This document shows positions 34,180 through 50,094 of a DNA stretch of 64,000 nt, piece by piece. This DNA is from Occultella glacieicola (lineage in GTDB: Bacteria > Actinomycetota > Actinomycetes > Actinomycetales > Beutenbergiaceae). A model generated the notes under the pieces. The model was given only the letters and a program-made list of their open reading frames with translations, had not been told where the DNA came from and did not search any database. The stretch is from contig NZ_SMNA01000007.1 in NCBI RefSeq assembly GCF_004353825.1, positions 124,001 through 188,000 on the forward strand, read 5' to 3'. Every line of letters begins with the position of its first letter. Positions within the stretch are counted from its first letter, which is position 1. The translations under genes and the position numbers were made by a program.

Positions 34180-34252
34180 GCGCCCGTAGCTTAATGGATA
34201 GAGCATCTGACTACGGATCAGAAGGTTGGGGGTTCGAGTCCCTCCGGGCGCG
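34180..34252 (+). tRNA. tRNA-Arg (anticodon ACG); prophage attL
   Basis: Acceptor GCGCCCG/CGGGCGC; anticodon arm TCTGA-CTACGGA-TCAGA; T loop GGTTCGAGTCC; CCA not encoded. Confidence 0.97.
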
Positions 34253-34522
34253 CTTCACCGATAGACCCCCGTCAGGATCGCCCTGACGGGGGTCTATCCC
34301 GTCTCGGAGCCACACGTAGGGGACGCCGGTCCGCAGTGCCCACAGGCGCATGGTCGCGCCGTTCGGCTTCGATCGACCGTTGATCCAGTTACCAACCGCG
34401 TTGCGGCTGACCTCCAGGTAGTCGCCCATCTCCTGCACCCCGACGTCGGCGTGGCGCAGCGACAGCAGCATCCGATCTGCCAGGTCCGGGACCGGCACTC
34501 GGCCGGCTGTCATCTCACTCAT
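34211..34522 (-). CDS. Immunity repressor (XRE-type HTH), prophage form of 103 aa ending inside the tRNA
   Basis: VQEMGDYLEVSRNAVGNWING HTH; ends RARRDSNPQPSDP with TAG supplied by the tRNA anticodon loop. Confidence 0.9.
   Translation of the reverse strand: MSEMTAGRVPVPDLADRMLLSLRHADVGVQEMGDYLEVSRNAVGNWINGRSKPNGATMRLWALRTGVPYVWLRDGIDPRQGDPDGGLSVKRARRDSNPQPSDP
34214..34253 (+). repeat. attL core (40 bp)
   Basis: CGGATCAGAAGGTTGGGGGTTCGAGTCCCTCCGGGCGCGC, identical to 50055-50094. Confidence 0.97.
34260..34298 (+). terminator. 17-bp perfect hairpin directly after the tRNA (phage-supplied)
   Basis: GATAGACCCCCGTCAGG-ATCGC-CCTGACGGGGGTCTATC. Confidence 0.7.
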
Positions 34523-34528
34523 GCATGG

Positions 34529-34557
34529 AGCATTGCACCTACTCGCGACACGCGCAA
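34529..34557 (-). promoter_or_regulatory. Putative leftward repressor promoter (leaderless)
   Basis: Minus strand TTGCGC-17 bp-AATGCT, 6 nt before ATG 34522. Confidence 0.5.
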
Positions 34558-34570
34558 GGTCTAGCGGGTA

Positions 34571-34600
34571 TTGACAATGTGATTGTGCAATGCCCATACT
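34571..34600 (+). promoter_or_regulatory. Rightward early lytic promoter (leaderless)
   Basis: TTGACA-18 bp-CATACT, 7 nt before ATG 34608. Confidence 0.8.
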
Positions 34601-34607
34601 CGCCGAC

Positions 34608-34799
34608 ATGACCACGACTGCAGCAGAGTTGATCGGCAGCAAGGAAGCATGCCGGCTCCTCGACGTCGACCGGGCAACCCTGGTCCGTCGAGTGTGGGAC
34701 GGCACGCTCACCCCGGTAACGAAGATGCCGGGGAAGAACGGCGCATACGTGTTCGCTCGCGCCGACATCGCCGCGCTCGCCGAGGAGCGTGCGTCGTGA
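34608..34799 (+). CDS. Cro/excisionase-like HTH protein
   Basis: LIGSKEACRLLDVDRATLVRRV...YVFARADI; divergent from the repressor. Confidence 0.85.
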   Translation: MTTTAAELIGSKEACRLLDVDRATLVRRVWDGTLTPVTKMPGKNGAYVFARADIAALAEERAS

Positions 34800-34885
34800 A
34801 GCGCGCCGCCGACCTCGTCGCCCGGGTCGCGCTCGTCTCGGTTCCGCTCGCCGCTGTGCTGCTCGCCGGGTGGTGGGCAGCGTGA
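34796..34885 (+). CDS. 29-aa single-TM phage protein
   Basis: GAGGAG RBS; GTGA overlap with the cro-like stop; hydrophobic. Confidence 0.55.
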   Translation: MKRAADLVARVALVSVPLAAVLLAGWWAA

Positions 34886-35217
34886 GCGTCGGCCGAGGTT
34901 GCAAGTCACGTAAGGAGGTGATCCCATGTTCGGCTTCTTCTTCGGCCTCTTCGGCTGGGGTGACGAACTCATCTGACCCCGGAGCCCGGCTCGATCCTCC
35001 TCCCCCGGGGATCGAGCCGGGTGGGATCACCGACAAGACCCGCAAGCACGTGTTCGCCCTGCTGAACAAGCAGGGCATCACCGACCCCGACGTCCAGCGT
35101 CGGGGCATGACGAAGGTCCTCGGTCGCCCGGTCGAGTCCCGGTCGAGCCTCACCGAGGACGAGGGCCGGACCCTCGTCATGGAGCTGCAGGCCCGTGAAC
35201 GGCGGTACGCAAGATGA
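34882..35217 (+). CDS. Phage hypothetical protein
   Basis: GTGA overlap; helical C-terminal domain KHVFALLNKQGITD...SLTEDEGRTLVMEL; start uncertain. Confidence 0.55.
   Translation: MSVGRGCKSRKEVIPCSASSSASSAGVTNSSDPGARLDPPPPGIEPGGITDKTRKHVFALLNKQGITDPDVQRRGMTKVLGRPVESRSSLTEDEGRTLVMELQARERRYAR
34926..34976 (+). CDS. 16-aa micro-ORF MFGFFFGLFGWGDELI
   Basis: Preceded by AAGGAGGTGATCC (34912-34924); high-GC-type codon usage. Confidence 0.5.
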   Translation: MFGFFFGLFGWGDELI

Positions 35218-35438
35218 GGCATCACCACACCGAGGCACTCGACGTCGACGTCGACGAGCCCGTCCCCTACGTCCCGACCGACCTCCCCACCGCGCTCGCG
35301 ATGGTCGACCGCCTGGTCCTCGACCTCGCCCTACTCACGGGCGTCCCTGAGTCCGTCATCCGCATCCGGTACGGGGTCGTGTCCACGCCCATCGTGGACA
35401 TGCTCGTCTACGGATCGCCCGATCGGGAGCCGTCATGA
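35214..35438 (+). CDS. Phage hypothetical protein
   Basis: ATGA overlaps at both ends. Confidence 0.65.
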   Translation: MRHHHTEALDVDVDEPVPYVPTDLPTALAMVDRLVLDLALLTGVPESVIRIRYGVVSTPIVDMLVYGSPDREPS

Positions 35439-35653
35439 AGGCGACGCTCCGCGCGTTCGGGTGGGTCGCTGACCTCACCATCGGCCCCGTGCCCAAGCCC
35501 GCCGCCCCGCCGCCCGCAGCTCCAGCCGTGGGCACGCACCCGGTGGGTGGCTTGACCTCGTCCGTGGGGCACGGCCCCGGGCAGCGTGTGAACGCACGTA
35601 ACCCGTTCCCGCGTGCCGCCGGATTCCTCCGCAACGAGGAGCCGCCCCGATGA
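35435..35653 (+). CDS. Phage hypothetical protein
   Basis: GGGAG RBS; ATGA overlaps. Confidence 0.6.
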   Translation: MKATLRAFGWVADLTIGPVPKPAAPPPAAPAVGTHPVGGLTSSVGHGPGQRVNARNPFPRAAGFLRNEEPPR

Positions 35654-35856
35654 TGACCTACGTCGCGCAATGGCCCGTCCTGGACGATGACGCGCTACTC
35701 AGCGCGCTCAAGGTGGAGGCCCTCACCGACCTGGTCACCATGACGGCCAAGCTGCACCTGGTCCTCGTGGGCAACCCCGAGTGGGAGACGTCCGAGGTCG
35801 CCGGCAAGACGTTCCTAGGCGTGCGTGTCGGCGTCGTGAGGGTGTCAGCGTCGTGA
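35650..35856 (+). CDS. Phage hypothetical protein
   Basis: GAGGAG RBS; ATGA overlap. Confidence 0.65.
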   Translation: MMTYVAQWPVLDDDALLSALKVEALTDLVTMTAKLHLVLVGNPEWETSEVAGKTFLGVRVGVVRVSAS

Positions 35857-36254
35857 CGCCGGAGGAATGGCGCACAGTGCCCACCGCACCCGGCTACGAG
35901 GCATCGAGCCTCGGCCGGGTGCGGAACGCGCGCACGCTGCACGTCCTGAAGCCGCTCAGGCACGACAAGGGCTACCTCAAGGTCAAGTTGGGTCGCGCTC
36001 GCTACGACTACGTCCACAGGATCGTCTGTGAGGCGTTCCACGGCGAGCCGCCGAGTCAGCACGTCCACGATGCCGACCACAAGGACTTCGACCGCGAGAA
36101 CAACCGCCCAGCGAACCTCAGGTGGCTCCCCAAGCACCTGAACGCCTGGAGGTGGGACGGCTACCGCGATCCCGTCGAGGACGAGCCGTTCGAGCCGATC
36201 ACCGAGGCCGAGGGCAAGCAGCTCGACGCCGCCATGGCGAAGGCCGGGTGGTAG
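35853..36254 (+). CDS. NUMOD4/HNH homing-type endonuclease
   Basis: EEWRTVP..GYEASSLGRVR; VHRIVCEAFHG; DHKDFDRENNRPANLRW. Confidence 0.88.
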   Translation: MTPEEWRTVPTAPGYEASSLGRVRNARTLHVLKPLRHDKGYLKVKLGRARYDYVHRIVCEAFHGEPPSQHVHDADHKDFDRENNRPANLRWLPKHLNAWRWDGYRDPVEDEPFEPITEAEGKQLDAAMAKAGW

Positions 36255-36545
36255 CAGCACACGAACACGCAGTACGGCGTTCCTGCCTCTCCCGCCGCAG
36301 AAGCACACCAGAGAGGTCCGGCATACAGGTTGACCCGGGAACGGCCCGGGCCGGGTGCTCAGACACCGCGCGCAAACTCACCGTCTGGTCACTCGTCAGC
36401 ACAGCTCGCTCTCAAATCGAGAGCGGGCCATTCGTGTTGGCCGAGAGGGTATATCGGCTGATGGTTACCGGGAACTGGGGAAGGGGAGCCGCTCCGGGGA
36501 CAGCCCTCGCGCAGCGAGGTCCATCGATCAGTGGAGGTGAGCAGC

Positions 36546-36797
36546 ATGGACGACATCACGAGGGACCACCTCGGTCGGATGGTGTGCGACCACGAGACTC
36601 CAGGTGGTGCGCCCAAGTGCCCACTCTGCCGCCGGATCGTCCTCGACCTCCACGCCCCGAGCGATGCGAAGGTCAAGGCATGGCGCAGGCGGAACCGCGC
36701 CGGCACCCCGATGCCCGACTGGTTCAAGCAGCAGCTCACTCAGATGACCGAGCCCAAGCCCGAGCATCCCGACCTCCTCGATGGAGGTGCGTGGTGA
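36546..36797 (+). CDS. Phage hypothetical protein with possible Zn site
   Basis: GGAGGTG RBS; CDH...CPLC. Confidence 0.65.
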   Translation: MDDITRDHLGRMVCDHETPGGAPKCPLCRRIVLDLHAPSDAKVKAWRRRNRAGTPMPDWFKQQLTQMTEPKPEHPDLLDGGAW

Positions 36798-37087
36798 CCG
36801 GGGCATGGTCTGGACGGGTGGTGATGAACGAGCGTGCCCGCCTGGCGAAGCGGCTACCCGCGCCGTGCTGTCGGTGTGGCAAGCCGGTGCTGCCCGGGCA
36901 GAAGTGGCACGTGGACCACTACCCGATCCCGCGTGAGTTCGGCGGCACCGAGACTCACCCGGCCCACGAGCACTGCAACACCAGCGAGGGTGGCAAGCGC
37001 GGCGCGGCGATCACGAACGCACGACGACAACCGACCGCGTCGGCCGCGATGCGACCCGAGCGAGACCGAGGGATCAGAGGGATATGA
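36794..37087 (+). CDS. Small HNH endonuclease (packaging-associated type)
   Basis: CCRCG...WHVDH...PAHEHCN; immediately upstream of the terminase. Confidence 0.85.
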   Translation: MTGAWSGRVVMNERARLAKRLPAPCCRCGKPVLPGQKWHVDHYPIPREFGGTETHPAHEHCNTSEGGKRGAAITNARRQPTASAAMRPERDRGIRGI

Positions 37088-38634
37088 AGCATCTGACCGA
37101 CACCAAACCGGCGACACTTTTTGAGTTCGGCACGGAAGTCCTCGCATGGCGTCCCCTCCCGTTCTCTCCCTACCCCATCACGCGAGGTGGGCGACGTCGG
37201 GCCAAGCCAACATTCATCTCACGCATACCGCGCGACACGAACATAGCGACAGCGGTCAAGGGTGCCGACCTGTTCAAGTTGCCGATCACGACGCAGGGCG
37301 AGCAGGTCGCCGGGGTCCTGGAGTCGCTCGCCCCGGACGGGACCCCGTTGTATCCAACGGTCGCGATCCTCATGCCTAGACGTTCGACCAAGACCACCTC
37401 GATCTGGAATGTTCTCCTCGGCCGCTGCTACGCCCACCCTGGCTACAAGGTGGTCACGACGGCGCAGGACGGGATTCGCGCCCGGAACAAGTTCCGCGAG
37501 GTCCAGCGTGCTCTCGACGCGTTCGGGTTCAAGGAGCGCGGACTGGGCAAGCTCTACTGGGGCAACGGGTTCGAAGCGATCGAGTGGGCGAACGGGTCGA
37601 GGATGTGGGTGGTCCCACCCGACGCCGCCGCGTTCCGGTCCGAAGCTGCTGACTGCATGCTCTTCGATGAGGCCGGCGAACTGGACGAGGCGACGTCCGA
37701 GGACCTCGTCGCGGGTGCTCTGCCGCTCATGGACACCCGCCCGATGGGTCAGGTCATCATCACCGGCACCCCGTCACCGCGCCGGGCCGCCCTCCTGTGG
37801 GACACCCTCCAGGAGGGCCGCGACCGCAAGAAGCGTGACGTCGGGATCGTGGACTACTCGCTCCGTGACGACGAACCGTCCGTGCTCTACCCCGATGGTG
37901 AGGACTCCGAACCGGTCCTGAACGAGAAGCTGCTCTACCGGGTGCACCCCGGCATCGGCACCCTGACCACCATCAAGAAGATGCGCGCCCGGTTCGCGAA
38001 GATGACCCTGGTCAAGTTCGAGGCCGAGTACTTCTGCCGGTTCCCGACCGACCACACCGTGACCGCGATCAACCCAGCGAAGTGGGACACCGCCCGCGCC
38101 GAGGTCCTCCCGGTCCGGCCCGACCGCGTCGGCCTGGCGTTCGACGTCGCCCCGGACTCATCCGCCGCCGCCCTGGTCGCGGCGTGGCGAGACGAGGACG
38201 GCCGCGCCCATATCGAGGTGATCGGCTACCGGTCCGGCGTCGCGTGGCTCCCCGGCGCGGGCAAGGCCGCGGCGATCAAGCACCGGTGCGCGGTCGCCTA
38301 CGACGTGATCGGTGCGAACACGAACCCGGCCGACACCATGCACCGGTCCCGCGTCCAGGTCACCGGCTACAACATCCGCCACCAGCAAGGCGCACAGCAG
38401 CGGTTCGTCGACGAGCTCGACCGCGAGAACCTGACCCACTACGACCAGACCGACCTCAACCTCGCGGCCGAGGGTGCGAACTGGCGCAACGTGAACGAGG
38501 GCGGTCGCCTGTTCGGGAGGAAGGCATCCGCGTCCGACGTGTCCCCGATCGTCGCCGCCGCCCTGGCGCTCTGGCAGTACGACCAGGTCCCCGACCGCCA
38601 ACCCATGAAGATCCGTACCACCGCGACACGCTGA
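37084..38634 (+). CDS. Terminase large subunit
   Basis: Walker A-like MPRRSTKT; Walker B LFDEAG; ITGTP; nuclease LAFDV and DVSPIVA. Confidence 0.9.
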   Translation: MKHLTDTKPATLFEFGTEVLAWRPLPFSPYPITRGGRRRAKPTFISRIPRDTNIATAVKGADLFKLPITTQGEQVAGVLESLAPDGTPLYPTVAILMPRRSTKTTSIWNVLLGRCYAHPGYKVVTTAQDGIRARNKFREVQRALDAFGFKERGLGKLYWGNGFEAIEWANGSRMWVVPPDAAAFRSEAADCMLFDEAGELDEATSEDLVAGALPLMDTRPMGQVIITGTPSPRRAALLWDTLQEGRDRKKRDVGIVDYSLRDDEPSVLYPDGEDSEPVLNEKLLYRVHPGIGTLTTIKKMRARFAKMTLVKFEAEYFCRFPTDHTVTAINPAKWDTARAEVLPVRPDRVGLAFDVAPDSSAAALVAAWRDEDGRAHIEVIGYRSGVAWLPGAGKAAAIKHRCAVAYDVIGANTNPADTMHRSRVQVTGYNIRHQQGAQQRFVDELDRENLTHYDQTDLNLAAEGANWRNVNEGGRLFGRKASASDVSPIVAAALALWQYDQVPDRQPMKIRTTATR

Positions 38635-38675
38635 GCCGCAATGCGCAAATAGTGGGCAATGCACAGAAGCGGCGC

Positions 38676-38681
38676 TATGCT
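38676..38681 (+). promoter_or_regulatory. Putative -10 of a leaderless late promoter
   Basis: TATGCT 7 nt before ATG 38689 in an AT-richer intergenic gap. Confidence 0.5.
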
Positions 38682-38688
38682 CCTGCCC

Positions 38689-39729
38689 ATGGGCATCCGG
38701 AGTGTGTTCGACCTCGCTAGTCGGGTCGCGTCCGGGACTGCCCTGCCCAAGACCACCCGGCTCGCGTCGCCCTACGCCGGGGCGAACACCCTGACCAAGG
38801 TCGCGGTCGCGGACATGTGGGGCGAGGACGGTCCGCTGTTCGCGACCTACCTCGACGCGATGCGCGTCCCGGCGATCGTCAAGGGCCGAGCACTGATCGT
38901 CGGCACCCTCTCCCGGCAGCCGCTCGCGAAGTTCCGAGGCTCCGAAAAGGTCAAGTCCGACCCGTGGATGTACCGGACCTCGACCGCACAGAACCCGCAG
39001 GCACGGATGCTCTGGACCATCGATGACTGCATCATGTACGGCTCGTCCCTGTGGGCTGTCCAGCGTGGCAGCAAGGAGCAGATCACGGATGCGATCCGGG
39101 TCCTGCCCGATGAGTGGGAACTGGACGACGACCTCCGGATCAAGGTCCGAGGCCAGAAGGTCGACGCCGATGAAGTGATCCTGTTCGAGGGTCCGCAGCT
39201 TGGCCTGCTCGAAATCGCCGCCGCCGACATTCGCGCCTCGATCGCGATGGGCCGCTCGTGGGCGCAGCGGGTCGACTCCCCGGTCCCGCTCGTCGCACTC
39301 AAGATCGAGGACGCGAACCACGAACCCACGGACGACGAGGCTGACCAACTGATCGAGAGTTGGGAGACTGCGCGCCGTAAGGGCGGCACTGCGCTCCTGC
39401 CCTACGGCCTCGGCATGGACGTTCACGGCGAGACGCCCACCGACCTGTACGTCAACGGTCGCAACGCTGCCCGCCTGGACTGGGCGAACTACCTCGCGTT
39501 GCCGGCGTCCCTGCTCGACGGGTCCACCGCGACCGCGTCGCTCACGTACTCCACGAAGCAGGACTCCCGGAACGAACTCGTGGATTTGTCCCTCGCCTAC
39601 TGGGCGACCCCGATCGAGGCGCGCCTGTCCCAGGACGACGTCGTCCCCTCCGGCACCCGAACCGCGTTCGACCTCGAATATCTCGCATCCCCGACCCAGC
39701 CGACCCAGTCGCCGGCCCGAGAGGACTGA
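38689..39729 (+). CDS. Portal protein
   Basis: AMRVPAIVKGRALI, SLTYST and PIEARLSQDD; position after the terminase. Confidence 0.88.
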   Translation: MGIRSVFDLASRVASGTALPKTTRLASPYAGANTLTKVAVADMWGEDGPLFATYLDAMRVPAIVKGRALIVGTLSRQPLAKFRGSEKVKSDPWMYRTSTAQNPQARMLWTIDDCIMYGSSLWAVQRGSKEQITDAIRVLPDEWELDDDLRIKVRGQKVDADEVILFEGPQLGLLEIAAADIRASIAMGRSWAQRVDSPVPLVALKIEDANHEPTDDEADQLIESWETARRKGGTALLPYGLGMDVHGETPTDLYVNGRNAARLDWANYLALPASLLDGSTATASLTYSTKQDSRNELVDLSLAYWATPIEARLSQDDVVPSGTRTAFDLEYLASPTQPTQSPARED

Positions 39730-39731
39730 CC

Positions 39732-41339
39732 ATGACCACCATGAAGATCGCGGGGACACTCCTCGCAACCGACGCGGGCGACCGCACCCTGACCTACCTC
39801 CTGGCCCCGTTCGGCGAGCCGGGCCGCACGAACCTCGGGAAGGTCACCCTGACCGCGTCGTCCTTCACGGTCCCCGAGGACGTGACCGACCTCGGCATCA
39901 ACGTCGAACACGAACGCACGACGCCGGTCGCGAAGTTCGCCCGGGTCGAGGCGACCGACGCCGGCTATGAGGCCGACGTCCGGTTCCTCGCCACGAGGGC
40001 CGGTGACGACGCCCTGACCGAGGCCCGCGAGGGTGTCCGCAAGGGCATCAGCGTGGAGGTAGACCAGCCGGTGATCCGCGACGGGAAGATGCTCGCCGGC
40101 CTGCTCTCCGGGGCCGGCCTGTGCGTCACCCCGGCGTTCACCTCCGCGCAGCTCGTCGCCGCCGACGCCGGGGAACTGCCGGACCACATGGCCGACACCG
40201 ACTCCGAGACCGTCTCCACCGAGACGATCACGATCGACGGCAAGGAGTACGTCCGCAAGACCACGTCCAAGTACACCTCCGAGACCACGCCCGTGGCCTC
40301 GGCCGACGACCCCACCGAGGGCGACGATGAAGGAGACAACACCATGGGTGACACCACCCTCGCCGCGTCGGCCCCGGCCGGCGGCCCCGCCGCGATGCGC
40401 GGCAAGTCCGGCCCGAAGATCGATTCGGCCGAGTCGCTGTTCGCGACCCTCGCGAAGGCGTTCGCGGCCGACGACCGGCAGATGCTCGCCGCCCTGGACC
40501 AGGGCATCGCCGCCGACCTCGCGTCGGCGCAGCAGCCGCAGTGGGCCGGTGAGGTGTGGGCCCGCCGCACGCACCGTCAGCGGTTCATCCCGCTGTTCAC
40601 CTCCGGGCCGCTGAACGCCCTCAAGATCACCGGGTGGAAGTTCGCGCCCCGGTCGGGCACGGCGCCGCAGCCGCCGGCCACGCCGACCGTGGCGACCTAC
40701 GCCGGCTACCCGGCCGAGCCGAACTCGACCGAGGTCAAGACCGGGCCGGTCACGATCACCGCGTCCCGGCTCGCCGGGGCGAACGAGTTCGACCGGGCGT
40801 TCGTGGACTTCGACACCCCGGAGTTCTGGGCCGGGTTCTTTCGTGAGTCCGCGAACGACCTGTCCCGCAAGCTCGACACGGCGGCCGAGACGCACCTGTT
40901 CACCTCGGGCAACTACGTCGAGGTCGACGGCGGGACCGTCCCGTCCGGGGTCTCGACCGCCGCGGCCTACATCGTGGACGGGGTCCTCGCGATCCAGGAC
41001 GTGGCCGTCCCGGACTTCGCGGTCATCGGTGTGGACCTGTGGCGTGAGTTCGCCCTGACCCGCAAGGACGACGCCCTGGAGTACCTGAGCGCGATGCTCG
41101 GACTCGACCCCGCCGAGGGCCGGTTCGACACGTTCAAGTTCATCCCGTCCAGCCACGCCAGCGTGGCCGGGTCCGTGCTCGTCGGAGCGTCCGACTCGCA
41201 CACCTTCTACGGCCCCAAGACCGTCCGGGCCTCCACGGTCGACATCGCCAAGGGTGGCGTGGTGGAGGGCCTGTTCGGGTACTACGCCGCGAACACCGGC
41301 TCCGACAGCGCGTTCGCCCTCGTCGCCGCCGCCGCGTGA
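39732..41339 (+). CDS. Capsid maturation protease-major capsid protein fusion
   Basis: N-terminal HK97-type protease (NVEH, GISVE, TPAF), acidic linker, capsid-sized C-terminal domain. Confidence 0.85.
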   Translation: MTTMKIAGTLLATDAGDRTLTYLLAPFGEPGRTNLGKVTLTASSFTVPEDVTDLGINVEHERTTPVAKFARVEATDAGYEADVRFLATRAGDDALTEAREGVRKGISVEVDQPVIRDGKMLAGLLSGAGLCVTPAFTSAQLVAADAGELPDHMADTDSETVSTETITIDGKEYVRKTTSKYTSETTPVASADDPTEGDDEGDNTMGDTTLAASAPAGGPAAMRGKSGPKIDSAESLFATLAKAFAADDRQMLAALDQGIAADLASAQQPQWAGEVWARRTHRQRFIPLFTSGPLNALKITGWKFAPRSGTAPQPPATPTVATYAGYPAEPNSTEVKTGPVTITASRLAGANEFDRAFVDFDTPEFWAGFFRESANDLSRKLDTAAETHLFTSGNYVEVDGGTVPSGVSTAAAYIVDGVLAIQDVAVPDFAVIGVDLWREFALTRKDDALEYLSAMLGLDPAEGRFDTFKFIPSSHASVAGSVLVGASDSHTFYGPKTVRASTVDIAKGGVVEGLFGYYAANTGSDSAFALVAAAA

Positions 41340-41373
41340 CCGACCGATGAGCGAACCGGGAGGAGGTGAACAG

Positions 41374-41715: not shown

Positions 41716-42080
41716 GCCTCGCGACCGACGTCGCCGACGACCTCCGGGTGCGCCTCGGCAAGCCCTACGTAGTGAGGGGGTTCCTGCCCACGGTCGACGC
41801 AGTCCCCCACCCGACCGTCGCGGTCTGGCAGACCCGAGTCGTGAAGGCCCCGCTCCTCGGGCACAACGTCCTCCAGTTCGAAATCACCGTCCAGGTGATC
41901 GTCGGGGAGGAGGACATGGCCGCCGCAGACCGCGCCCTCGACGTCGCACTACTGGACGTCCTGGACGCACTCCAGCGGATCAGTCTCGTGGACTGGACCG
42001 GGGCCGACCGTGTCGTCCGTGAGGACGCTCACCACGCCTACAACATCAACTGTCAAGCCCTCGCCAAGATCGGAGAATGA
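41712..42080 (+). CDS. Tail terminator-like protein
   Basis: 122 aa; synteny; ATGA overlaps. Confidence 0.6.
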   Translation: MSLATDVADDLRVRLGKPYVVRGFLPTVDAVPHPTVAVWQTRVVKAPLLGHNVLQFEITVQVIVGEEDMAAADRALDVALLDVLDALQRISLVDWTGADRVVREDAHHAYNINCQALAKIGE

Positions 42081-43046: not shown

Positions 43047-44613
43047 GGGCCTCAACCTTGAGTTCGTCGCCGACGTCCGCCGCTTCATCGCCGGCACGGA
43101 CGACATCGAACGCAGCCTTGACGAGGTCTCCGACTCGCTCGACACCATGGCCCGCGACGCCGACCGGGCCGGCGACAAGGTCAGCGACTCCCTGGAGCAG
43201 GTCGGCGACGACGCGAAGGACGCCGGCCGCGACCTCGAGCGCGGCCTGGAGGACGGCACCGACGCAGCCGCCGACGAGGCCACCCGCCTGGAGCGCACGT
43301 TCAAGGACACGTTCGACACGGTCAAGCGTGAGTCCAAGGGTGCCGGTGACGACGTCTCCCGGAACACCAAGCGCGGCATGGACGACGCCGCCGACTCCAC
43401 CGAGACCTTCAAGAACGAAGCCCGGCAGAACCTGTCCGAGTCCGTGTCATCGTTCCGTGGCGACGTCGAGGACATCCCGCAGCTCGTCCAGGACGTGTTC
43501 GGCGGGGTCGCCGCCGACCTCGGCCCCGCCGGCCTGATCGGCGGCACCCTCGTCGCCGCCGGCATCGGCCTCGGCGTCGCCTACCTCCAGGGTGCCGCCG
43601 AGAAGGCCGAGGAACTGAAGGACCACACCATCGACCTCGCGAAGCAGATTCAGGAGGTCGGCGGGGACCTGAACCGGCTCGACCTCGGCGCGATCTTCGA
43701 TGACTGGGCGTTCGCGATCGGCGACACCAAGGAGTTCTGGGAGGTCTGGCAGAACGCCCCGATCACGAACGTTGAGCAAATGGCGACTGCGATGGACGCG
43801 CTCGGGGTGTCGGCCACCGACATGTATGCCGCACTCACCGACCCCAACGGGCCCGAGGGGCAACGCATCCTTGAGCAGATCATCGACACCCTCGCGAACA
43901 CAGGCGGCATGTCCGACGAGACCACGAACGCGCTCGTGCACATGCGCGACGCGATCCGCGACGGGAACCTGTCCCTGGAGGACGCCACCGAACTCCAGCA
44001 GACCTACCAGGCCGCGATCGAGGGAACCACGGTCGAGGCGATCAAGGCCCGGGAGGCGGAGGAGGAGCTACGCGAGGAGCGGGAGACTTCCCGCGACGTG
44101 CTGTTCGGGTTGAACGACGCCACCGCCGGGTACTACGAAGCGCTCCAGGCCGCGAACGAGGCCCTGTCCGAGAATGGTGCCGGGCTGAACCTCGCCACTG
44201 AGCGGGGCCGCGAGAACCAGGCCGCGCTCGACGCGCAGGCGCAGGCGTCCTACGACTACATCCAAGCCCTGATCGACTCCGGTGCCGCCGAGGACGACGT
44301 GACCACCGCCGTCGACCAGCACCGTGCCGCGCTCCGAGAGCAAGCCACACAGATGGGCATGACCGAGACGCAGGCGCAGACCTACATCGACACCATCCTC
44401 GGCACCCCGAGCAACATCAACACCACGTTCAACGTGACCGACAACGGCACCGCCGCCGCGACCGAGCAGCGGATCAACAACATCCCGTCCAGCCTCCGCG
44501 TGCCCGTGAACGTGGACGGGGCCGGCCTCCAGGGCCAACTGGACGAGCAGCTCCGCCGCCTCCGCGTCAACGCGATTCAGGCACCCCTACGCATCGGGAC
44601 GAGGGTGGCGTAA
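43039..44613 (+). CDS. Tape measure protein
   Basis: 524-aa helical Ala/Asp-rich protein; GRENQAAL; synteny. Confidence 0.85.
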   Translation: MAKGLNLEFVADVRRFIAGTDDIERSLDEVSDSLDTMARDADRAGDKVSDSLEQVGDDAKDAGRDLERGLEDGTDAAADEATRLERTFKDTFDTVKRESKGAGDDVSRNTKRGMDDAADSTETFKNEARQNLSESVSSFRGDVEDIPQLVQDVFGGVAADLGPAGLIGGTLVAAGIGLGVAYLQGAAEKAEELKDHTIDLAKQIQEVGGDLNRLDLGAIFDDWAFAIGDTKEFWEVWQNAPITNVEQMATAMDALGVSATDMYAALTDPNGPEGQRILEQIIDTLANTGGMSDETTNALVHMRDAIRDGNLSLEDATELQQTYQAAIEGTTVEAIKAREAEEELREERETSRDVLFGLNDATAGYYEALQAANEALSENGAGLNLATERGRENQAALDAQAQASYDYIQALIDSGAAEDDVTTAVDQHRAALREQATQMGMTETQAQTYIDTILGTPSNINTTFNVTDNGTAAATEQRINNIPSSLRVPVNVDGAGLQGQLDEQLRRLRVNAIQAPLRIGTRVA

Positions 44614-45980
44614 TGGCGACCAGGACCAACCTCATCCGGAACCCCTCAGCCGAGATCGACACCGCGAACGCGTCGCAGAAGGGCGAGTTCTCAAGCACGC
44701 TTGCGCGTTCCACGGACCGGGCGTGGACCGGCATCGCCTCGTTCAAGGTCACCTCTACCGGTATTGGGCAACTAGAGCACAAGAAGCAGCTCGGTATGGC
44801 TGCCTGGGTTGACCCGGTTGCACCCGGAACCACGGTCAATGTCAAGGCGCGCATCTACGTTCCCGGCACCAACCAGCACGGTCCGAGGTATGTGTTCTGG
44901 TACCACCACCATCCCGCCACTGAGACACACAGTGAGGGATGGGTCTATGCCGGCAGTGACGGGGATATGCAGGTGAACACCTGGATAACCCACGACAGGA
45001 CGATGACCTCCGAGGTCTACATGATCGACGGCTACGCCGTCGTGGTCACGAACGACAGTGATGGGCCTTGGGCCGCCGCCGACGTTGTTTACTTCGATGG
45101 GCTCCAGGCCGAACTCGGTACCGAGTCCGGGGAGTACTTCGACGGGGACACCCTCGACACCCTGGAGTACGCCTTCAACTGGTCCGGCACCCCGCACAAC
45201 TCCGAGTCCACCATGGACTGGATCGGGCCTACCCTGTTCACCGCAACACCGGACCCGGCCAACGGGAACATCCTCCTGGACATCACCCCGGGCACCAGCT
45301 CGACCGTGGACGCGATCACCCGCACCGACGCCAACGGAACGCACCCGGTCCGGCTACTGCCGAACCAGCTGCCGACCCCGTCGCAGCTCATCGTGCGCGA
45401 CTACGAGGCCGCCCTGACCGGCCCGGTCACGTATACCCTGACCGGTGCCGGTGGTTCCCAGGTGACGACGTCCCTCGGGTCGGATCACCCGTGGCTGTTC
45501 GTGCCCGTCTATCCGCAGTTCTCCGCCGCCGTGGAGTCCGTCACCGGGTACACCTCGGACCGGGCCACCCAGACCACCGTGCACCAGGTGATCGGCCGCC
45601 CGGACCCGCTCGTCACGATCGGTCGCCTCCAGACCAGGGCCGGGACCCTGGAGATTTGGTGCGCCTCCCACGCCGACGCGCTCACCGTCCAGAACGTCTA
45701 CAGCCTCGGGCACGCCGTGATGCTCCGCCAGGTCGAGCACGCCGGCCTGGACATGTACCACTTCGCCCGGGCCGTCACCGTCGACCCGTTCGCCCCTCAG
45801 GGTGCCCGCACCCGGTGGCGGGTCGCGGTCGACTACGTCGAGGTCAACCGTCCCACGGCCGACCTCGCCGGTTCCCTCGGGTGGAACTACTCCGAGCTGG
45901 CCGCCGCGCACACGTCCTACTTCGAAGTCGCGTTCACCTACGCGGACTACAACGCCCTCCTAGTCGGACCACTCACATGA
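44613..45980 (+). CDS. Minor tail protein (carbohydrate-binding-like N domain plus distal-tail-like domain)
   Basis: RTNLIRNPSAE...YFDGLQ...YFDGDT...WSGTPHNSES module. Confidence 0.75.
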   Translation: MATRTNLIRNPSAEIDTANASQKGEFSSTLARSTDRAWTGIASFKVTSTGIGQLEHKKQLGMAAWVDPVAPGTTVNVKARIYVPGTNQHGPRYVFWYHHHPATETHSEGWVYAGSDGDMQVNTWITHDRTMTSEVYMIDGYAVVVTNDSDGPWAAADVVYFDGLQAELGTESGEYFDGDTLDTLEYAFNWSGTPHNSESTMDWIGPTLFTATPDPANGNILLDITPGTSSTVDAITRTDANGTHPVRLLPNQLPTPSQLIVRDYEAALTGPVTYTLTGAGGSQVTTSLGSDHPWLFVPVYPQFSAAVESVTGYTSDRATQTTVHQVIGRPDPLVTIGRLQTRAGTLEIWCASHADALTVQNVYSLGHAVMLRQVEHAGLDMYHFARAVTVDPFAPQGARTRWRVAVDYVEVNRPTADLAGSLGWNYSELAAAHTSYFEVAFTYADYNALLVGPLT

Positions 45981-47107
45981 CCGCCCCGTTCATGGAGCAG
46001 GCCGCCACCGCGATCAACGAACCGATCACGCACGTGTGGCGGATCGAGGCGTGGCCTCCCGGCGCGACCGAGGGCATCCCGTTGGCCGTGAACAACGGCA
46101 CCCTCACCTACGACGAGGCGTGGGCCCCGCACGTGCAGGCGTCCCTGCAATGCCAGGTCCCGACCGACCAGGCCACCCTCGACGCCCTCGACCCCCGAAC
46201 CAACTGCCGCATCCATATCTACCTCGGGTACGTCTACCAGCGCGGCACCGAGGACGTGCACCTCATCGCCGACCTCGGACTGTTCGCCCGGACCGTGAAC
46301 CGGCCGCAAAACACCATGGACCTGTCGGCGATGTCGGACGAGATACGCCTACTCTCGAACGCCTGGTTGGGTGGTGCCCAACCGCCCAAGACGGGTGCCG
46401 CCGAGGCCCTCGTCTGGACGATCAACGCCGGCCTTGACCCGATCAACGCGGGCAGCATCGACACGCAGATCGGAACCGAGGTCGCGGCCGACCAGCTCAC
46501 CGAACTCGCGATCGGGTACGGCGACTCCTACGGGTCGCTGTTCACCACCATTCAGGACTCCACCGAGACGTGGGCCTACTGCCCGGGTGCGGTCGCCGGG
46601 CACTGGGTGATCCGATACCGGCCCACTCTGGCGGGCCGCTCGGCAGCCCAGTTCACCACGGGTCCCGGTGGGAACGTGTTCGAGTCCGAGGCCGACCTGT
46701 CCCGCGAGGACTGGCACAACGCGGTTCTCGTCCGGCACCGGTGGAAGGACACCGGCGGCACCGATCACGAGGTGCGCGGCATCGCGGTCATCAACTCCGG
46801 TGCCCATGGGGCCGTCAGTGTCGGCCGTCACGTCCTGACCATCGACCGCACCACGCCGACCAGCCAATCCGCCGCCGACGCCGCGGCCGCCGCGAAGGTC
46901 CGCCGCACCATCAGCCGAGGGCGTCAGTTCAATGTCAGCGTCCCGGCCGCGTACTGGGTGCGCCCCGGTCACACCGTGACCATCCAGTTGCCCACAGGCC
47001 CGCAGGAACGCCACCTCGTGGCATCCGTCGAGTTCCGGTTCCCCTCTGGGGACATGTCCGTCCGAACCCGCGTCCCCGAGAACGTCACCATCACGGAAGG
47101 TGAATGA
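45977..47107 (+). CDS. Minor tail protein (hub-like)
   Basis: ATG 45977 overlap; LTYDEAWAPHVQA and YWVRPGHTV. Confidence 0.75.
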   Translation: MTAPFMEQAATAINEPITHVWRIEAWPPGATEGIPLAVNNGTLTYDEAWAPHVQASLQCQVPTDQATLDALDPRTNCRIHIYLGYVYQRGTEDVHLIADLGLFARTVNRPQNTMDLSAMSDEIRLLSNAWLGGAQPPKTGAAEALVWTINAGLDPINAGSIDTQIGTEVAADQLTELAIGYGDSYGSLFTTIQDSTETWAYCPGAVAGHWVIRYRPTLAGRSAAQFTTGPGGNVFESEADLSREDWHNAVLVRHRWKDTGGTDHEVRGIAVINSGAHGAVSVGRHVLTIDRTTPTSQSAADAAAAAKVRRTISRGRQFNVSVPAAYWVRPGHTVTIQLPTGPQERHLVASVEFRFPSGDMSVRTRVPENVTITEGE

Positions 47108-47110
47108 CCC

Positions 47111-47542
47111 ATGCCCAGCACACCCGCAGGACTGCCCTACCCGTCCGGGAACGACCAGCCCAACGTGCCCTACGACGTGCAGCAGCTCGCCGAGGCGCTC
47201 GACCCCATGGTCAACGACACTGGATGGGTGCCCATCGATGTGTACGCCGGCTACGAGACCAAGTCCGGGACCCCCGCCGTCCGACGCATCGGCCCCGTCG
47301 TGTACGCCCGGGGCGTGATCGGTCCCACGGCCGGCACCATGGCCGCCTCCCAGACCGTCTATATCGGGCGGGTGCCAGTAGGGTTCCGTGTCGCCGAGTC
47401 GCTCTGGTTCGCGGCCGGCACCACGGCGGGTCAGCCTGCCGCAACCCTGGTCCAACTCTCGGACGGGCAGATTCAGGCCCGGACGCCGAACCTCGCTGTG
47501 TCCTACGTGGGTCTGTCCAGCATGAGTTACCCGGTCGACTGA
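47111..47542 (+). CDS. Minor tail protein
   Basis: GLPYP, DTGW, RRIGPVVYARG and VPVGFR motifs. Confidence 0.7.
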   Translation: MPSTPAGLPYPSGNDQPNVPYDVQQLAEALDPMVNDTGWVPIDVYAGYETKSGTPAVRRIGPVVYARGVIGPTAGTMAASQTVYIGRVPVGFRVAESLWFAAGTTAGQPAATLVQLSDGQIQARTPNLAVSYVGLSSMSYPVD

Positions 47543-48270
47543 TGCGCACCCCAACCCAGGCCGTCGAGTGGGCGAACCGGGTCAAGGCCGGCTACTCCGG
47601 CTACTGCCTCCAGTTCGTCCGGTCCGCGTTCGGCGTCGCCGCGAAGCACGCCAGCGCGAAGGACGCGTGGCTCGCCACCACCCGCCGCCACACCGACCGC
47701 ACCCCACCCGCCGGGGTGCCCGTGTGGTTCTCGTTCGACTCCGGCGTGAACCGCAACTACTGGCACGTCGCGATCAGCCTCGGAGGCGGCCGCATCCGCA
47801 CGACCTCCTACCCCCGGTCCGGCGTCGTCGGCAACACCACCATCACCGGACTGGAAAAGGCGTGGTCCGGCGTCGGCACCACCTACCTCGGCTGGTCCGA
47901 GGACATCAACGGGGTCCGGGTCTACACCCCCGCCGCCCCGCCGCCCGCACCATCCGCCCCGAGTCCTGAGGAGGACGACATGCCCACAGTTGGAGAAATC
48001 TGGTCCGCCGAGTTCGGACGAGGAGACCGCCGCATCACTGCCGGCGACCTCATCACGCAGGTGGACGACATCCTCGCCGAGGTCGCCGACCTCCGCGTCG
48101 AGGTAGGCAACATCACCAAGATCGTCGCGAGCCTCGACACCAGCGAATCCAGGGTCAAGCAGCTCTACGACCGCCGCACCTCGATCGACAAGATCGGGCC
48201 GCTGCTCGACCGGGTCGACGCCCTCGCCGACCTGGTCGAGAAGGCCCTCACCAACAACCGGGAGGTCTGA
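47542..48270 (+). CDS. Endolysin (CHAP/NlpC-P60-like Cys-His peptidase plus C-terminal helical domain)
   Basis: GYCLQFVR, WHVAISLGGG and YLGWSEDING; Pro-rich linker. Confidence 0.85.
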   Translation: MRTPTQAVEWANRVKAGYSGYCLQFVRSAFGVAAKHASAKDAWLATTRRHTDRTPPAGVPVWFSFDSGVNRNYWHVAISLGGGRIRTTSYPRSGVVGNTTITGLEKAWSGVGTTYLGWSEDINGVRVYTPAAPPPAPSAPSPEEDDMPTVGEIWSAEFGRGDRRITAGDLITQVDDILAEVADLRVEVGNITKIVASLDTSESRVKQLYDRRTSIDKIGPLLDRVDALADLVEKALTNNREV

Positions 48271-48272
48271 CC

Positions 48273-48470
48273 ATGGACGAGTACACACCCAAGGTCCCCG
48301 ACCGGGTCCGCACGTGGGCCTACGGCGTCGGCATCGGCCTCGGCCTCGGTGCCGCACCCGCGCTGCTCGCCCTCAACCAGCCGGCCCTCGCCGGGGTCGC
48401 CGCCGCCCTGGCCGGCGCAGCGAACGCCCTCGCGTTCGGCTACCGACCCACCCGGCCCAGCGCAAGCTAA
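48273..48470 (+). CDS. Holin
   Basis: 65 aa, two hydrophobic segments, follows the lysin; GGAGG RBS. Confidence 0.7.
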   Translation: MDEYTPKVPDRVRTWAYGVGIGLGLGAAPALLALNQPALAGVAAALAGAANALAFGYRPTRPSAS

Positions 48471-48712
48471 TGAGTGTCCAGGGTGAGGGGAGCATCCCGC
48501 TGCCGACGCGCCTGGAGCGGATCGAGAAGAACCTGTCCGAGGTCCTCGAAACCGTCCAGGCGCTCGACGGCCGGGACAAGGCCGACCTCGTCCGCTACGA
48601 GCACCTCGCCGCCCGTGTCTCCGCGCTGGAGTCGTGGCGCACGTGGCTCGAGCGGATCGTCGGTGGTGTCGTGATCCTCGCGGTCCTCGCGGGCGCGATC
48701 ATCACGCGATAG
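48470..48712 (+). CDS. Lysis-cassette membrane protein (coiled coil plus C-terminal TM)
   Basis: TAATG overlap; RVSALESWRTW...IVGGVVILAVL. Confidence 0.65.
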   Translation: MSVQGEGSIPLPTRLERIEKNLSEVLETVQALDGRDKADLVRYEHLAARVSALESWRTWLERIVGGVVILAVLAGAIITR

Positions 48713-49523
48713 CGAGGACGGTTCGGCGTAGCGCGTCGTCGGGGACCTGGACGTAGACCCGGGTGGTCACCGGCGACGCGTGGCCCAGTAGTGTCTGCAC
48801 ACTCAGTAGGTCCCGGTCGACCCCATAGGCCCGGGTCGCGAAACGATGCCGCAGCGCGTGCATGGTCACGTCCTCGGGCAGGAGCCCGGTGACGAGTTTC
48901 CCGACCCACCTCGGCGAGAGGTGCCCGCCGTCGTCGCCCGGGAACGCCCACCCGCCGCCCGCGTTGTGGATCAGGGTCCGCAGCTCCAGCGCTAGCCCGG
49001 GGGAGAGCGGCACGGTCCTCTCCCGGGAGCCCTTCCCGTGCACGACCAGGGACCAGCCGCCGAGGTCCTCGACCAGGTCCCGGTGATGGACCTGTGCGAC
49101 CTCGGCGCGGCGTAGACCGGCCTCGGCCGCGAGGCGCACCATCACCCGTTCCCGAGGTCGAGCGACCCGCATCGCGAGGTCCACCGCCGTGTTCGACGCC
49201 GGCCTCGGTCGCGGCTCGCTCGCACGCACAGGTGCCAGCCCAGCGGCCGGCGACGTCGCCACCCGCCCCGAGGTGACGCCCCACGCGTAGAAGGACCGCA
49301 GCGAGGCGCGCACGCCCCGCCTCGTCTCCCTCGCCCACGTCCTCGACCCGGTCCACTCGACCAGGTCGTCCCCGGTCACGTCCCACGGCCCGCACGGTAT
49401 CGCCGCAGCGCACCAGCGCAGGTGCTCCCGCCGGGTCCCGATCGTCGTTTCAACTCGTCCGGCCGCTCGGAGCGACACGGTCCAACGGTCGATTGCCTCA
49501 CTCCATTGTGTGTTCATAGTCAT
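48702..49523 (-). CDS. int: Tyrosine integrase lacking an N-terminal arm-binding domain
   Basis: GLRRAE, HGKG, HALRH, LLGH and TRVY; 273 aa; ends LAIA. Confidence 0.93.
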   Translation of the reverse strand: MTMNTQWSEAIDRWTVSLRAAGRVETTIGTRREHLRWCAAAIPCGPWDVTGDDLVEWTGSRTWARETRRGVRASLRSFYAWGVTSGRVATSPAAGLAPVRASEPRPRPASNTAVDLAMRVARPRERVMVRLAAEAGLRRAEVAQVHHRDLVEDLGGWSLVVHGKGSRERTVPLSPGLALELRTLIHNAGGGWAFPGDDGGHLSPRWVGKLVTGLLPEDVTMHALRHRFATRAYGVDRDLLSVQTLLGHASPVTTRVYVQVPDDALRRTVLAIA

Positions 49524-49525
49524 CG

Positions 49526-49810
49526 CTATCGGCCGATCGTGACGGCTTGTTCGTGGTCAACCCGGGGTTGACGGCCCCATCGCTTGTGGGCGGCCTGCTT
49601 GGTCGTGCCGGTCGCGGCCCCGATCTGCTCCCAGGTGGCCCCGTTCGCGTGGACCGACCGTGCCGCGTTGTCGATCGCCTCGTCCACGGCCGCACGCAGC
49701 GCGACCAGGTCGGCGAGGTCCTCCGGGTCCGCGAGGGCCATGCGCCGCGACGCGGCCCGCAGGATGCGACGCGTGAACGCCATGAACTCGGCGTGGTCCC
49801 CGCCGCCCAT
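49526..49810 (-). CDS. Small HTH DNA-binding protein
   Basis: GATWEQIGAATGTTKQAAHKRW. Confidence 0.75.
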   Translation of the reverse strand: MGGGDHAEFMAFTRRILRAASRRMALADPEDLADLVALRAAVDEAIDNAARSVHANGATWEQIGAATGTTKQAAHKRWGRQPRVDHEQAVTIGR

Positions 49811-49998
49811 CACGAGCCACCCTCGATCCGGACCGGACCAGCGACCCGCAGCACGTCGTGAGTGTGTGAGTGAGCCGTCCCGGCCGTGCGAGCCTCGTCC
49901 CGGTCGGCGTGCTCGGACCAGTGCCCGCACTCACCACAGAGGACCTCGACGCTCCCGCCTGCCCCGGACATGAGCACGACGGGCAGTCGCGCGCTCAT
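49810..49998 (-). CDS. 62-aa putative Zn-binding protein
   Basis: CGECG...AHSHTH; GAGGAG RBS; ATGA overlap with the stop of the viral-form repressor tail. Confidence 0.6.
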   Translation of the reverse strand: MSARLPVVLMSGAGGSVEVLCGECGHWSEHADRDEARTAGTAHSHTHDVLRVAGPVRIEGGS

Positions 49999-50054
49999 GC
50001 CGCACGCTCCTCGGCGGGCCGCAGCTCGACCACGTTCGAGCGGCCCTCAGACTC
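49995..50054 (-). other. Detached 3' end of the repressor gene (ESEGRSNVVELRPAEERAA*)
   Basis: In frame with the repressor when attL and attR are rejoined as attP. Confidence 0.88.
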
Positions 50055-50094
50055 CGGATCAGAAGGTTGGGGGTTCGAGTCCCTCCGGGCGCGC
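50055..50094 (+). repeat. attR core (40 bp; 3' part of tRNA-Arg)
   Basis: Identical to 34214-34253. Confidence 0.97.

Follow-up and report, generated by a model that had tools for sequence, protein, structure and literature searches.

Integration-dependent immunity is a published mechanism (PMC3694055, PMC4557955, PMC9262239, PMC9934374). In mycobacteriophage BPs (cluster G, int32-rep33-cro34), one host base beside the core makes the stop codon of the repressor, at the same tRNA-Arg as in the locus described here (PMC9262239). Small (16-18 kb) temperate actinophages of non-mycobacterial hosts with this layout are also in print (including PMC5559632), namely Gordonia cluster CW (GMA5, GRU3), Gordonia phage Rahul and the Bifidobacterium prophages Bb423phi2/689b-1. 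The integration-dependent immunity system of another isolated Gordonia phage, Wizard, which is placed with Twister6 at attB-2 (tRNA-Arg), seems to be intact (PMC5559632). We analyzed a 64,000-nt stretch of the Occultella glacieicola genome (the window), which contains a 15.8-kb prophage with the same layout. This element is likely a further example of the switch known from Mycobacterium and Gordonia phages. It adds a compact and apparently intact example in a host without the mycobacterial arabinosyltransferase family and leaves the known mechanism unchanged.

The sequence shows an att core inside the repressor gene, a host-supplied stop, a tyrosine integrase without an arm-binding domain and a divergent Cro-like gene, in agreement with the BPs-type assignment proposed in an earlier sequence-only reading. 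The non-mycobacterial host presumed there was also borne out, as no Arabinose_trans/EmbCAB family was found in the 100%-complete genome. The target tRNA-Arg(ACG) is common to both elements, and the BPs prophage repressor likewise has 103 residues, with 32% identity over 69 aa. However, BPs uses another frame of the core (PEGFEPPTF, with TGT changed to TGA at tRNA position 39) than the prophage (DSNPQPSDP, with GAG changed to TAG at position 34). Furthermore, the prophage and BPs differ in core length (40 vs 35 bp), tail length (19 vs 33 aa) and genome size (15.8 vs 41.9 kb), and the prophage, unlike BPs, has two ORFs between repressor and integrase. These two ORFs were not mentioned in the sequence-only reading. 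Such extra genes are not new, since gp18 occupies the same place in GMA5, whose DSNP-frame repressor ends in AAA.

Cluster CW phages target tRNA-Lys and the Bifidobacterium prophages tRNA-Met, as opposed to tRNA-Arg here. The integrases of GMA5, GRU3 and Rahul are 46-47% identical to that of the prophage. In all these small Gordonia and Bifidobacterium elements, the virion genes are only distantly related. The closest switch modules found were those of L061 (uncultured phage IMGVR_UViG_3300048851_000074, 17,257 nt), which has the same tRNA-Arg core and is 68% (Int), 67% (repressor) and 80% (94-aa HTH protein) identical, and of Curtobacterium phage Barebow (Int 53-54% identical). Both are in the BPs frame. 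Compared to L061, the prophage carries an additional 62-aa ORF, differs at two places in the left arm and is shifted in frame by a net one base in the linker that precedes the core.

The prophage and its tRNA site

The element, its attachment site and its virion genes are as follows.

34214..50054, no strand: prophage unit, 15,841 bp; 68.5% GC vs 71-72% in the flanks; ~96% coding
34180..34253, plus strand: host tRNA-Arg(ACG), intact at attL; anticodon 34213-34215
34214..34253, plus strand: attL common core, 40 bp, exact copy of attR
50055..50094, plus strand: attR common core (3' part of the tRNA); 14-bp hairpin directly after it
34260..34298, plus strand: 17-bp hairpin directly 3' of the tRNA, within the repressor coding sequence; -36.1 kcal/mol
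37084..48712, plus strand: virion and lysis genes (terminase, portal, capsid-protease fusion, tail genes, tape measure, putative lysin, holin)

The tRNA-Arg(ACG) is the sole ACG tRNA in the genome according to ARAGORN. Positions 34214-34253 and 50055-50094 form an exact 40-bp direct repeat with an offset of 15,841 (E 6.8e-12). Chance does not explain it, because apart from this repeat the prophage has no strong match elsewhere in the genome. When the alignment was extended to 34209-34253, it contained one mismatch in 45 bp, A34213 vs C50054, as had been reported before. The attB rebuilt in silico also carries ACG, and the tRNA is reconstituted on integration. The 17-bp hairpin is likely a tRNA terminator supplied by the phage; a hairpin-like repeat directly 3' of the tRNA is also present in same-genus genomes.

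The gene set, mostly virion genes, is that of a small tailed phage, for which a siphovirus type is predicted, and it fits the small-genome (14-18 kb) actinobacterial siphoviruses (RRH1, Gordonia CW, Arthrobacter Corgi-like). The best terminase matches (38-40%) were in the 15-16 kb Arthrobacter phages (Corgi, Berka, BlueFeather and relatives), and the 535-aa capsid protein shares 29% identity with the capsid-protease fusion of Corgi. No integrase or repressor is annotated in the Corgi record, whereas the prophage carries a temperate switch. A defective remnant, whose switch formerly worked but which now lacks excision or particles, would be consistent with the absence of a recognizable replication gene from the right arm and with similar 18-kb Bifidobacterium prophages, which were not seen excising. 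However, the element looks intact: all annotated ORFs are open with ~96% coding, the two 40-bp att cores match exactly, the catalytic residues of Int are retained, and the virion genes show synteny with those of the isolated 15.8-kb phage Corgi (23-45% identical). A remnant appears very improbable.

Integrated and predicted excised forms of the repressor

The repressor frame was followed through both att sites.

34211..34522, minus strand: prophage-form repressor, 103 aa, XRE/HTH_3 (phrog_2328); ends PSDP-TAG
34211..34213, minus strand: repressor stop TAG, complement of the host anticodon-loop bases C32-U33-A34; A34213 is the wobble base
50052..50054, minus strand: equivalent codon in the phage arm, GAG (Glu), with C50054
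49995..50054, minus strand: attR region of the repressor frame, opening with the GAG codon

The repressor has five helices at residues 14-74 and a C-terminal part predicted to be disordered, and the 40-bp core codes for the final 13 residues of the 103-aa form. The ORF from 34522 to 34211 indeed passes through the att core on the minus strand and meets TAG at attL, as opposed to GAG at attR, where the read-through codon and a 19-codon tail are found. We reconstructed the excised form in silico from the attL and attR sequences. Crossover after 34213, 34214, 34230 or 34253 gave a repressor of 122 aa ending RPAEERAA and restored ACG, whereas crossover after 34212 left the repressor at 103 aa and turned the anticodon into CCG. 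The two lengths and the -AA end of the longer form therefore agree with what was claimed earlier. Natural counterparts of both forms exist in a set of 111 repressor homologs: the SDP terminus of the prophage form was found in 7, and in 4 others SDP is followed by a tail ending LAAA, RIAS, PPAA or LAVA.

The host has clpP-clpP-clpX genes (ClpX and ClpP were found), and its tmRNA tag, ADSKRTDFALAA, ends ALAA. The -RAA end of the reconstructed repressor likely targets the 122-aa form to ClpXP. In a set of 32 distinct Int-linked attP/attR sites for this tRNA (not independent, with close relatives among them), 16 of the 30 predicted excised-form tails of at least 5 aa ended in AA, compared to 3/45 in the other two frames and 64/3569 host ORFs. 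RAA closed 7 of the 30 tails, and 7 had no [AV][AS] end.

It is conceivable, although improbable, that the layout is real but the 19-residue tail works poorly or not at all as a degron in this host, with both repressor forms active. The switch would then work mainly at the DNA level, by integration severing the repressor promoter from int and two small genes. The EERAA end is acidic, without the upstream Leu that is favored in E. coli, a terminal AA alone is insufficient, the two BPs repressor forms bind DNA similarly, and the Int end is non-canonical. These points are countered by the enrichment of AA ends in the excised-form frame, together with AA ends in 61/111 homologs, by the RAA ends among the predicted tails, and by the BPs tag, which functions despite its KAS end.

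Strand exchange and the integrase

The crossover site was mapped by family comparison.

34219..34224, plus strand: predicted 6-bp strand-exchange overlap CAGAAG, tRNA positions 40-45
34208-34218 and 34225-34235: predicted 11-bp arms at attL
50049-50059, 50060-50065 and 50066-50076: equivalents at attR of the left arm, overlap and right arm

In a set of 23 Int-linked sites, retrieved by a pattern starting at tRNA position 47, identity to the tRNA spanned positions 40-46 in all 23, as opposed to 1/23 at position 39 and 2/23 at position 36. The left arms mirrored positions 46-56 about CAGAAG with 5.66 of 11 matches vs 3.46 in shuffled arms (maximum 4.38 in 5000 shuffles), and one site was perfect (11/11). 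Half-sites centered at tRNA position 45/46 (GACTC/GAGTC) were also considered and were rejected by a register scan, which put the axis at 42.5. The limited identity and the symmetry place the wobble base within the predicted left integrase-binding arm. They support strand exchange 3' of the wobble base, as previously suggested, with the whole left arm being swapped. C50054 belongs to the left arm of the phage and is 6 bp away from the predicted overlap; the codon that contains it specifies K or S in related phages. The earlier idea of a stop made by one base stood in that TAG is completed by a host base, but C50054 does not act at the crossover as an isolated switch base. A one-base stop is already described for BPs at this tRNA and is not new.

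Alternatively, Int could cut around the anticodon loop, like many integrases that target tRNA genes, and tolerate the A/C mismatch in its overlap. The wobble base would segregate once recombination is complete, and only attL-A34 products, which make the stop, would survive. The GACT and TC identity retained in attP left of the mismatch is consistent with this, as are the cores of other elements at this tRNA, which begin at about position 32; loss of the sole ACG tRNA found would touch about half of the Arg codons. However, those cores are mostly unlinked to this integrase family, positions 36 and 39 almost never match in the linked sites, and the core of BPs, whose Int is 47% identical, begins at position 40. 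The span of identity (40-46) and the symmetry axis at 42.5 also differ from what defines an anticodon-loop-cutting (class I) tRNA integrase, in which the 7-nt anticodon loop falls within both core and overlap, and we consider this alternative extremely improbable. The predicted crossover is also in line with G399, whose two copies differ at position 49. A distant prophage (G385, tRNA-Met, Int 36% identity) speaks against it, with a mismatch to the tRNA at position 40, within the predicted overlap. At 28 integrase loci of other genomes, a tRNA-fragment repeat was found in 11 and none in 17 (within 9-40 kb each).

Three genes lie between attR and the virion genes.

48702..49523, minus strand: tyrosine integrase, 273 aa; R138, K164, H222, R225, H248 and Y257 present; ends LAIA
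49526..49810, minus strand: 94-aa HTH protein (phrog_686), 53% identical to GMA5 gp18
49810..49998, minus strand: 62-aa ORF with CxxC...H, between the repressor tail and the integrase

As noted in the sequence-only reading, the integrase has no arm-binding domain; its open frame extends to at most 284 aa. The alignment with BPs Int (47% identity) begins at BPs Int residue 62, and that with the best PDB match, 5vfz 'Gp33', begins at residue 35. Among the 33 family integrases listed, 10 end in AA and 2 in IA, and the C-termini vary widely. The -LAIA end of the prophage integrase is not Ala-Ala and may be the conserved last helix of the integrase family. A protein search with the 62-aa ORF returned only the ORF itself. 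The integrase family of the switch is common in the order of the host, with matches in 41/401 genomes. The family comparison yields a testable crossover map (6-bp CAGAAG with 11-bp arms) and an operator map, and a 273-aa integrase with a ~28-bp site might be used as a compact means of integrating DNA in such hosts.

Probable operation of the switch and variation of its frame

The candidate control elements lie mostly between the repressor and a Cro-like gene.

34608..34799, plus strand: Cro-like HTH_17 gene; ATG at 34608, in-frame ATG also at 34590
34571..34600, plus strand: candidate lytic promoter PR, TTGACA-18-CATACT; 1 found vs 0.1 expected
34585..34595, no strand: candidate operator, 11-bp palindrome GTGCAWTGCAC with 1 mismatch, between -35 and -10 of PR
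34528..34538, no strand: candidate operator directly upstream of the repressor start
38654..38664, no strand: third candidate operator, upstream of the portal gene

Repressor and integrase are co-oriented, with the two ORFs inserted between them, and diverge from the Cro-like gene, which is likely leaderless from ATG 34608 and matches the PHROG 'excisionase and transcriptional regulator'. The promoter scan gave no consensus promoter for the repressor or close to int. The 11-bp palindrome with one mismatch occurs at three prophage sites vs 0.05 expected per 15.8 kb, and the two sites next to the repressor are both kept in L061, the closest relative. Window-wide, a 9-bp motif with one mismatch (7 vs 9.8 expected) and the 11-bp motif with two mismatches (10 vs 10.8 expected) showed no enrichment.

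These data suggest, with a probability of about 0.8, that the prophage uses a BPs-type integration-dependent immunity switch with a 103-residue repressor when integrated and a ClpXP-targeted 122-residue repressor when excised. The degradation, excision and immunity steps are carried over from BPs experiments, the prophage itself being known from its sequence. After infection, the tagged repressor would be degraded and lytic growth would proceed from PR. With sufficient Int, which would bind the 11-6-11 site and exchange strands within CAGAAG, integration would replace the entire phage left arm by the host anticodon arm. Host C32-U33-A34 would then be read as TAG, giving the repressor of 103 residues, so that integration would strip the tag and part int from the repressor promoter. 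The repressor, now stable, would occupy the palindromes at PR and ahead of the portal gene. Excision would likely need Int alone and would restore the tag.

The frame used by the prophage is a minority (5/63) that recurs across the repressor tree, on which at least 6 changes are needed. It is not new at tRNA-Arg(ACG): Wizard has it (1 of the 6 isolated phages checked), as do 11 protein homologs, and different frames at one tRNA-Thr core have been published. Wizard shares with the prophage the CTC/Glu codon at positions 32-34 and has a VIPL motif and an AAA end, but it differs in its 58-kb genome, its Gordonia host, its longer tail and an attP that diverges from the tRNA leftwards, starting at position 39. 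A rule tying T39 to this frame is broken by Wizard (A39), and the stop/start overlap at the tail end was uninformative as a frame test (13/30 vs 17/42).

The motif V[VI]xL, VVEL in the prophage tail, was present in 7/29 excised-form tails (shuffle mean 0.76, maximum 5), although it was picked after viewing these 29 tails; it occurred in 0/33 other-frame tails, 2/7 of a held-out set and 3/21 protein homologs. The motif may resemble SspB tails. A two-part degron of AA and a V[VI]xL tether, jointly with repeated frame switching at this tRNA, is a doubtful proposal. If it were true, V[VI]xL would tether the repressor to the protease, e.g., via the ClpX N-domain, and frame switching would draw the stop from at least three tRNA positions (34, 39 and 49) and let phages stack at an occupied site without taking the tag of the neighbor. 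Orientation would also have been switched, in G399 and PensacolaC28.

An att site inside the repressor gene

The exact 40-bp direct repeat that bounds the prophage (34214–34253 and 50055–50094, an offset of 15,841 bp downstream) is the 3' part of the host's only ACG tRNA (55 tRNA calls over 5.34 Mb of genome). Across 34209–34253, the two copies differ at a single base, A34213/C50054, which is the anticodon wobble position. The following features are involved:

34180–34253: tRNA-Arg(ACG), called by ARAGORN
34522→34211, minus strand: XRE-type repressor (phrog_2328, HTH_3), prophage form of 103 aa ending PSDP-TAG
49523→48702, minus strand: integrase of 273 aa ending LAIA

In-silico crossover at all four points 3' of 34213 yielded a 122-aa repressor ending RAA together with an ACG tRNA, and crossover 5' of the wobble base kept the 103-aa repressor and turned the tRNA into CCG. 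The repeat, the single mismatch and the two repressor lengths claimed by the sequence-only reading were confirmed, and the integrase is, as it had described, 273 aa long, with the end LAIA and no arm-binding domain, for which an open frame of 284 aa leaves no room. R138, K164, H222, R225, H248 and Y257, located by motif position, are its tyrosine-recombinase residues. AlphaFold gave a confident five-helix domain at repressor residues 14–74 and a low-confidence C-terminal part, so the truncation is predicted to spare the whole DNA-binding domain. Directly after the tRNA, a perfect 17-bp hairpin (34260–34298) also codes for the Pro/Gly/Asp linker of the repressor; many relatives have comparable linkers, resembling PDGPDGG, ahead of their att core.

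Integration-dependent immunity of this kind, with the experiments on mycobacteriophage BPs, is described in PMC3694055 and PMC4557955. One bacterial base pair beside the 35-bp tRNA-Arg core of BPs changes a Cys codon to TGA (PMC9262239), and the bacterial stop codon is listed as one of the defining features, with two repressors using different frames at one core (PMC9934374). We reproduced the one-base frame logic from the BPs record. The earlier identification of a BPs-type system is borne out by the defining features tested at the sequence level, the integrase tag and the absence of a directionality factor aside. Judged from sequence, the feature is real, the BPs-type interpretation is correct, and the locus is a further example of a known system.

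Placement of strand exchange

Two DNA-pattern scans of IMG/VR each returned at least 122 loci. In the scan whose pattern began at tRNA position 47, the integrase family was linked to 23 distinct sites among the matches listed, of 69 non-tRNA-left sites; these 23 were identical to the tRNA at positions 40–46 in every case, at position 39 in one and at position 36 in two, and carried A (12 sites) or C (9 sites) at position 34. The left arm mirrored positions 46–56 about a 6-bp spacer, CAGAAG, with a mean of 5.66 of 11 matches over 32 distinct linked sites among the matches listed, one of them a perfect mirror; shuffled left arms gave 3.46 of 11, with a maximum of 4.38 in 5000 shuffles. C50054 raises the mirror-arm matches by one (5 versus 4 of 11). 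The Int of Brujita has an overlap of 6 bp. We infer that the strands are exchanged within 34219–34224, from sites that include relatives; the wobble base would then belong to the left binding arm, at a distance of 6 bp from the overlap. The constraint stated in the sequence-only reading, exchange 3' of the wobble base, therefore holds on linked-site identity and mirror symmetry, with the refinement that the whole arm would be swapped. Counter-evidence comes from a distant prophage (in genome G385) mismatched at position 40. The att copies differ at position 49 in genome G399 and in two tRNA-Met prophages. Compared with the related L113, the attP/attR-like sites of two loci (L105 and L119) apparently lack one base at tRNA positions 39/40, which shifts the tail frame, so that the repressor would stop after one or two residues.

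The repressor tail as a candidate degradation tag

Tails were predicted by a frame rule, which assigned sites with T at position 39 to the window's frame and all others to the BPs frame, for 30 of the 32 linked sites among the matches listed, two being dropped with tails below 5 aa. AA ended 16 of these 30 tails and [AV][AS] 23, against 3 and 5 of 45 tails in the other frames at sites among the matches listed; AA ends 64 of 3569 long host ORFs. Among 111 repressor homologs, 61 end in AA and 7 in SDP, as does the prophage form here, and 4 run SDP on into tails ending LAAA, RIAS, PPAA or LAVA, with K or S at the window's E codon. Both states of the window's frame thus occur naturally. A repressor-like ORF was cut at attL in 8 of 9 prophages examined in other genomes, and 6 of the 8 cut-off tails end in Ala, 2 of them in AA.

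Against a tag, the EERAA end diverges from the E. coli consensus, and a terminal AA by itself is often weak in E. coli (PMC10862746). The host ssrA tag is ADSKRTDFALAA, and clpP, clpP and clpX are adjacent in the host genome. The IA end of the integrase recurs in 2 of 33 family integrases versus AA in 10, so the integrase tag is putative.

V[VI]xL, a motif chosen post hoc on this set, occurred in 7 of 29 tails at sites among the matches listed (shuffle mean 0.76, maximum 5) and in 0 of 33 tails in other frames. It was found in 2 of 7 held-out tails, a count reached by 17 of 2000 shuffles. Tails of homologs had it in 3 of 21 cases, against a shuffle mean of 0.28 and a shuffle maximum of 3; here one row is mis-parsed and another is shared with the 29-tail set. 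The boldest reading, though not a likely one, is a two-part degron of which V[VI]xL would be one element.

Prophage, host and variants of the switch

Terminase, portal, capsid-protease fusion, tail, tape measure and holin genes lie between the repeats at a coding density of about 96%, giving a complete-looking small phage whose virion genes are syntenic with those of the 15.8-kb Arthrobacter phage Corgi at 23–45% identity. A NUMOD4-HNH endonuclease gene (35853–36254) is followed by roughly 290 bp (36254–36545) in which no gene is convincing; this stretch may hold an origin or serve in packaging. After excision the order would be repressor, 62-aa orphan, 94-aa HTH protein (53% identical to gp18 of the Gordonia phage GMA5) and int. 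The orphan (49810–49998, minus strand) has a CxxC...H pattern, no homolog among the candidates in a search of 5.8 billion proteins, and no counterpart in the uncultured phage L061 (IMGVR_UViG_3300048851_000074), the closest relative. A cro-like gene diverges from the repressor downstream of a predicted TTGACA-18-CATACT promoter. An 11-bp palindrome, a candidate operator, has three one-mismatch copies in the prophage (at the start of the repressor, within this promoter and before the portal gene), against about 0.05 expected per 15.8 kb from a genome-wide count of 17; the motif was chosen from the first two sites, both kept in L061, so only the portal-side site is independent.

The host was rightly suspected to be non-mycobacterial: its genome (GC 71–72%) has no match to the Arabinose_trans family. 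Three same-genus genomes share the left flank and the tRNA, but in place of phage DNA a hairpin-like repeat adjoins the end of the tRNA gene. Right of attR (50196–53018) lie a Beta-lactamase2-family gene, a LysR regulator and a metallo-beta-lactamase-fold gene; at two same-genus loci, the sequence ~1.1 kb past the tRNA matches 54026–54424 instead.

PMC5559632 describes the system for about half of the 27 Gordonia phages in which an attP was predicted; cluster CW phages of 17 kb have it, GMA5 carries an additional gene, and the Gordonia phage Wizard uses it at tRNA-Arg. PMC6109161 reasons likewise in silico for Bifidobacterium prophages of 18 kb. Further literature includes PMC7194413, PMC9635641, PMC4929511 and PMC12723719. 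An anticodon-loop TAG at tRNA-Arg(ACG) was not found named in our literature search, two primary papers being outside its reach; the arrangement is already present in Wizard. Matches to the integrase family at E ≤ 1e-45 came from 41 of 401 genomes searched in the order.

Among 63 distinct repressors from DNA-pattern loci in the matches listed, 57 used the BPs frame, 5 the window's frame and 1 a third. On a weakly resolved tree (62 rows, 62 columns, after stricter length filtering had removed 11 of 73 distinct repressors), 7 changes are required to place the 7 rows in the window's frame, at least 6 of these changes being forced by well-supported branches; recombination between modules could also have scattered them. 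L061 is 68% (Int) and 67% (repressor) identical to the prophage; it uses the BPs frame, and its linker differs by a net shift of one base. Wizard has A39 but the window's frame, so the T39 rule is imperfect; T39 also goes with the BPs frame at two loci, L006 and L079, that lack a linked integrase. In L006 (about 3265–3300), the repressor stops by TGA at the att core and the left side is neither tRNA nor integrase-linked arm; it looks like an attL outside a tRNA gene, possibly where a prophage has used a secondary site that nonetheless supplies a stop.

Genome G399 (L254, L210) carries an inverted switch at the same tRNA-Arg(ACG), with the repressor read in the sense direction of the tRNA; A49 in the repressor-side copy gives TAG, and G49 in the intact-tRNA copy gives TGG and read-through. 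Microbacterium phage PensacolaC28 (L397:14315–14728) has the same inverted switch, with gp20 as the read-through form and an integrase annotated as two pieces. A same-genus genome (G001:C1, about 1706400–1735500; L218, L219) contains two 14.5-kb prophages in tandem at tRNA-Lys(CTT), which may reflect an assembly duplication; the integrase is 57% identical, and an anticodon-loop TAA cuts the repressor, whose tail ends VPA.
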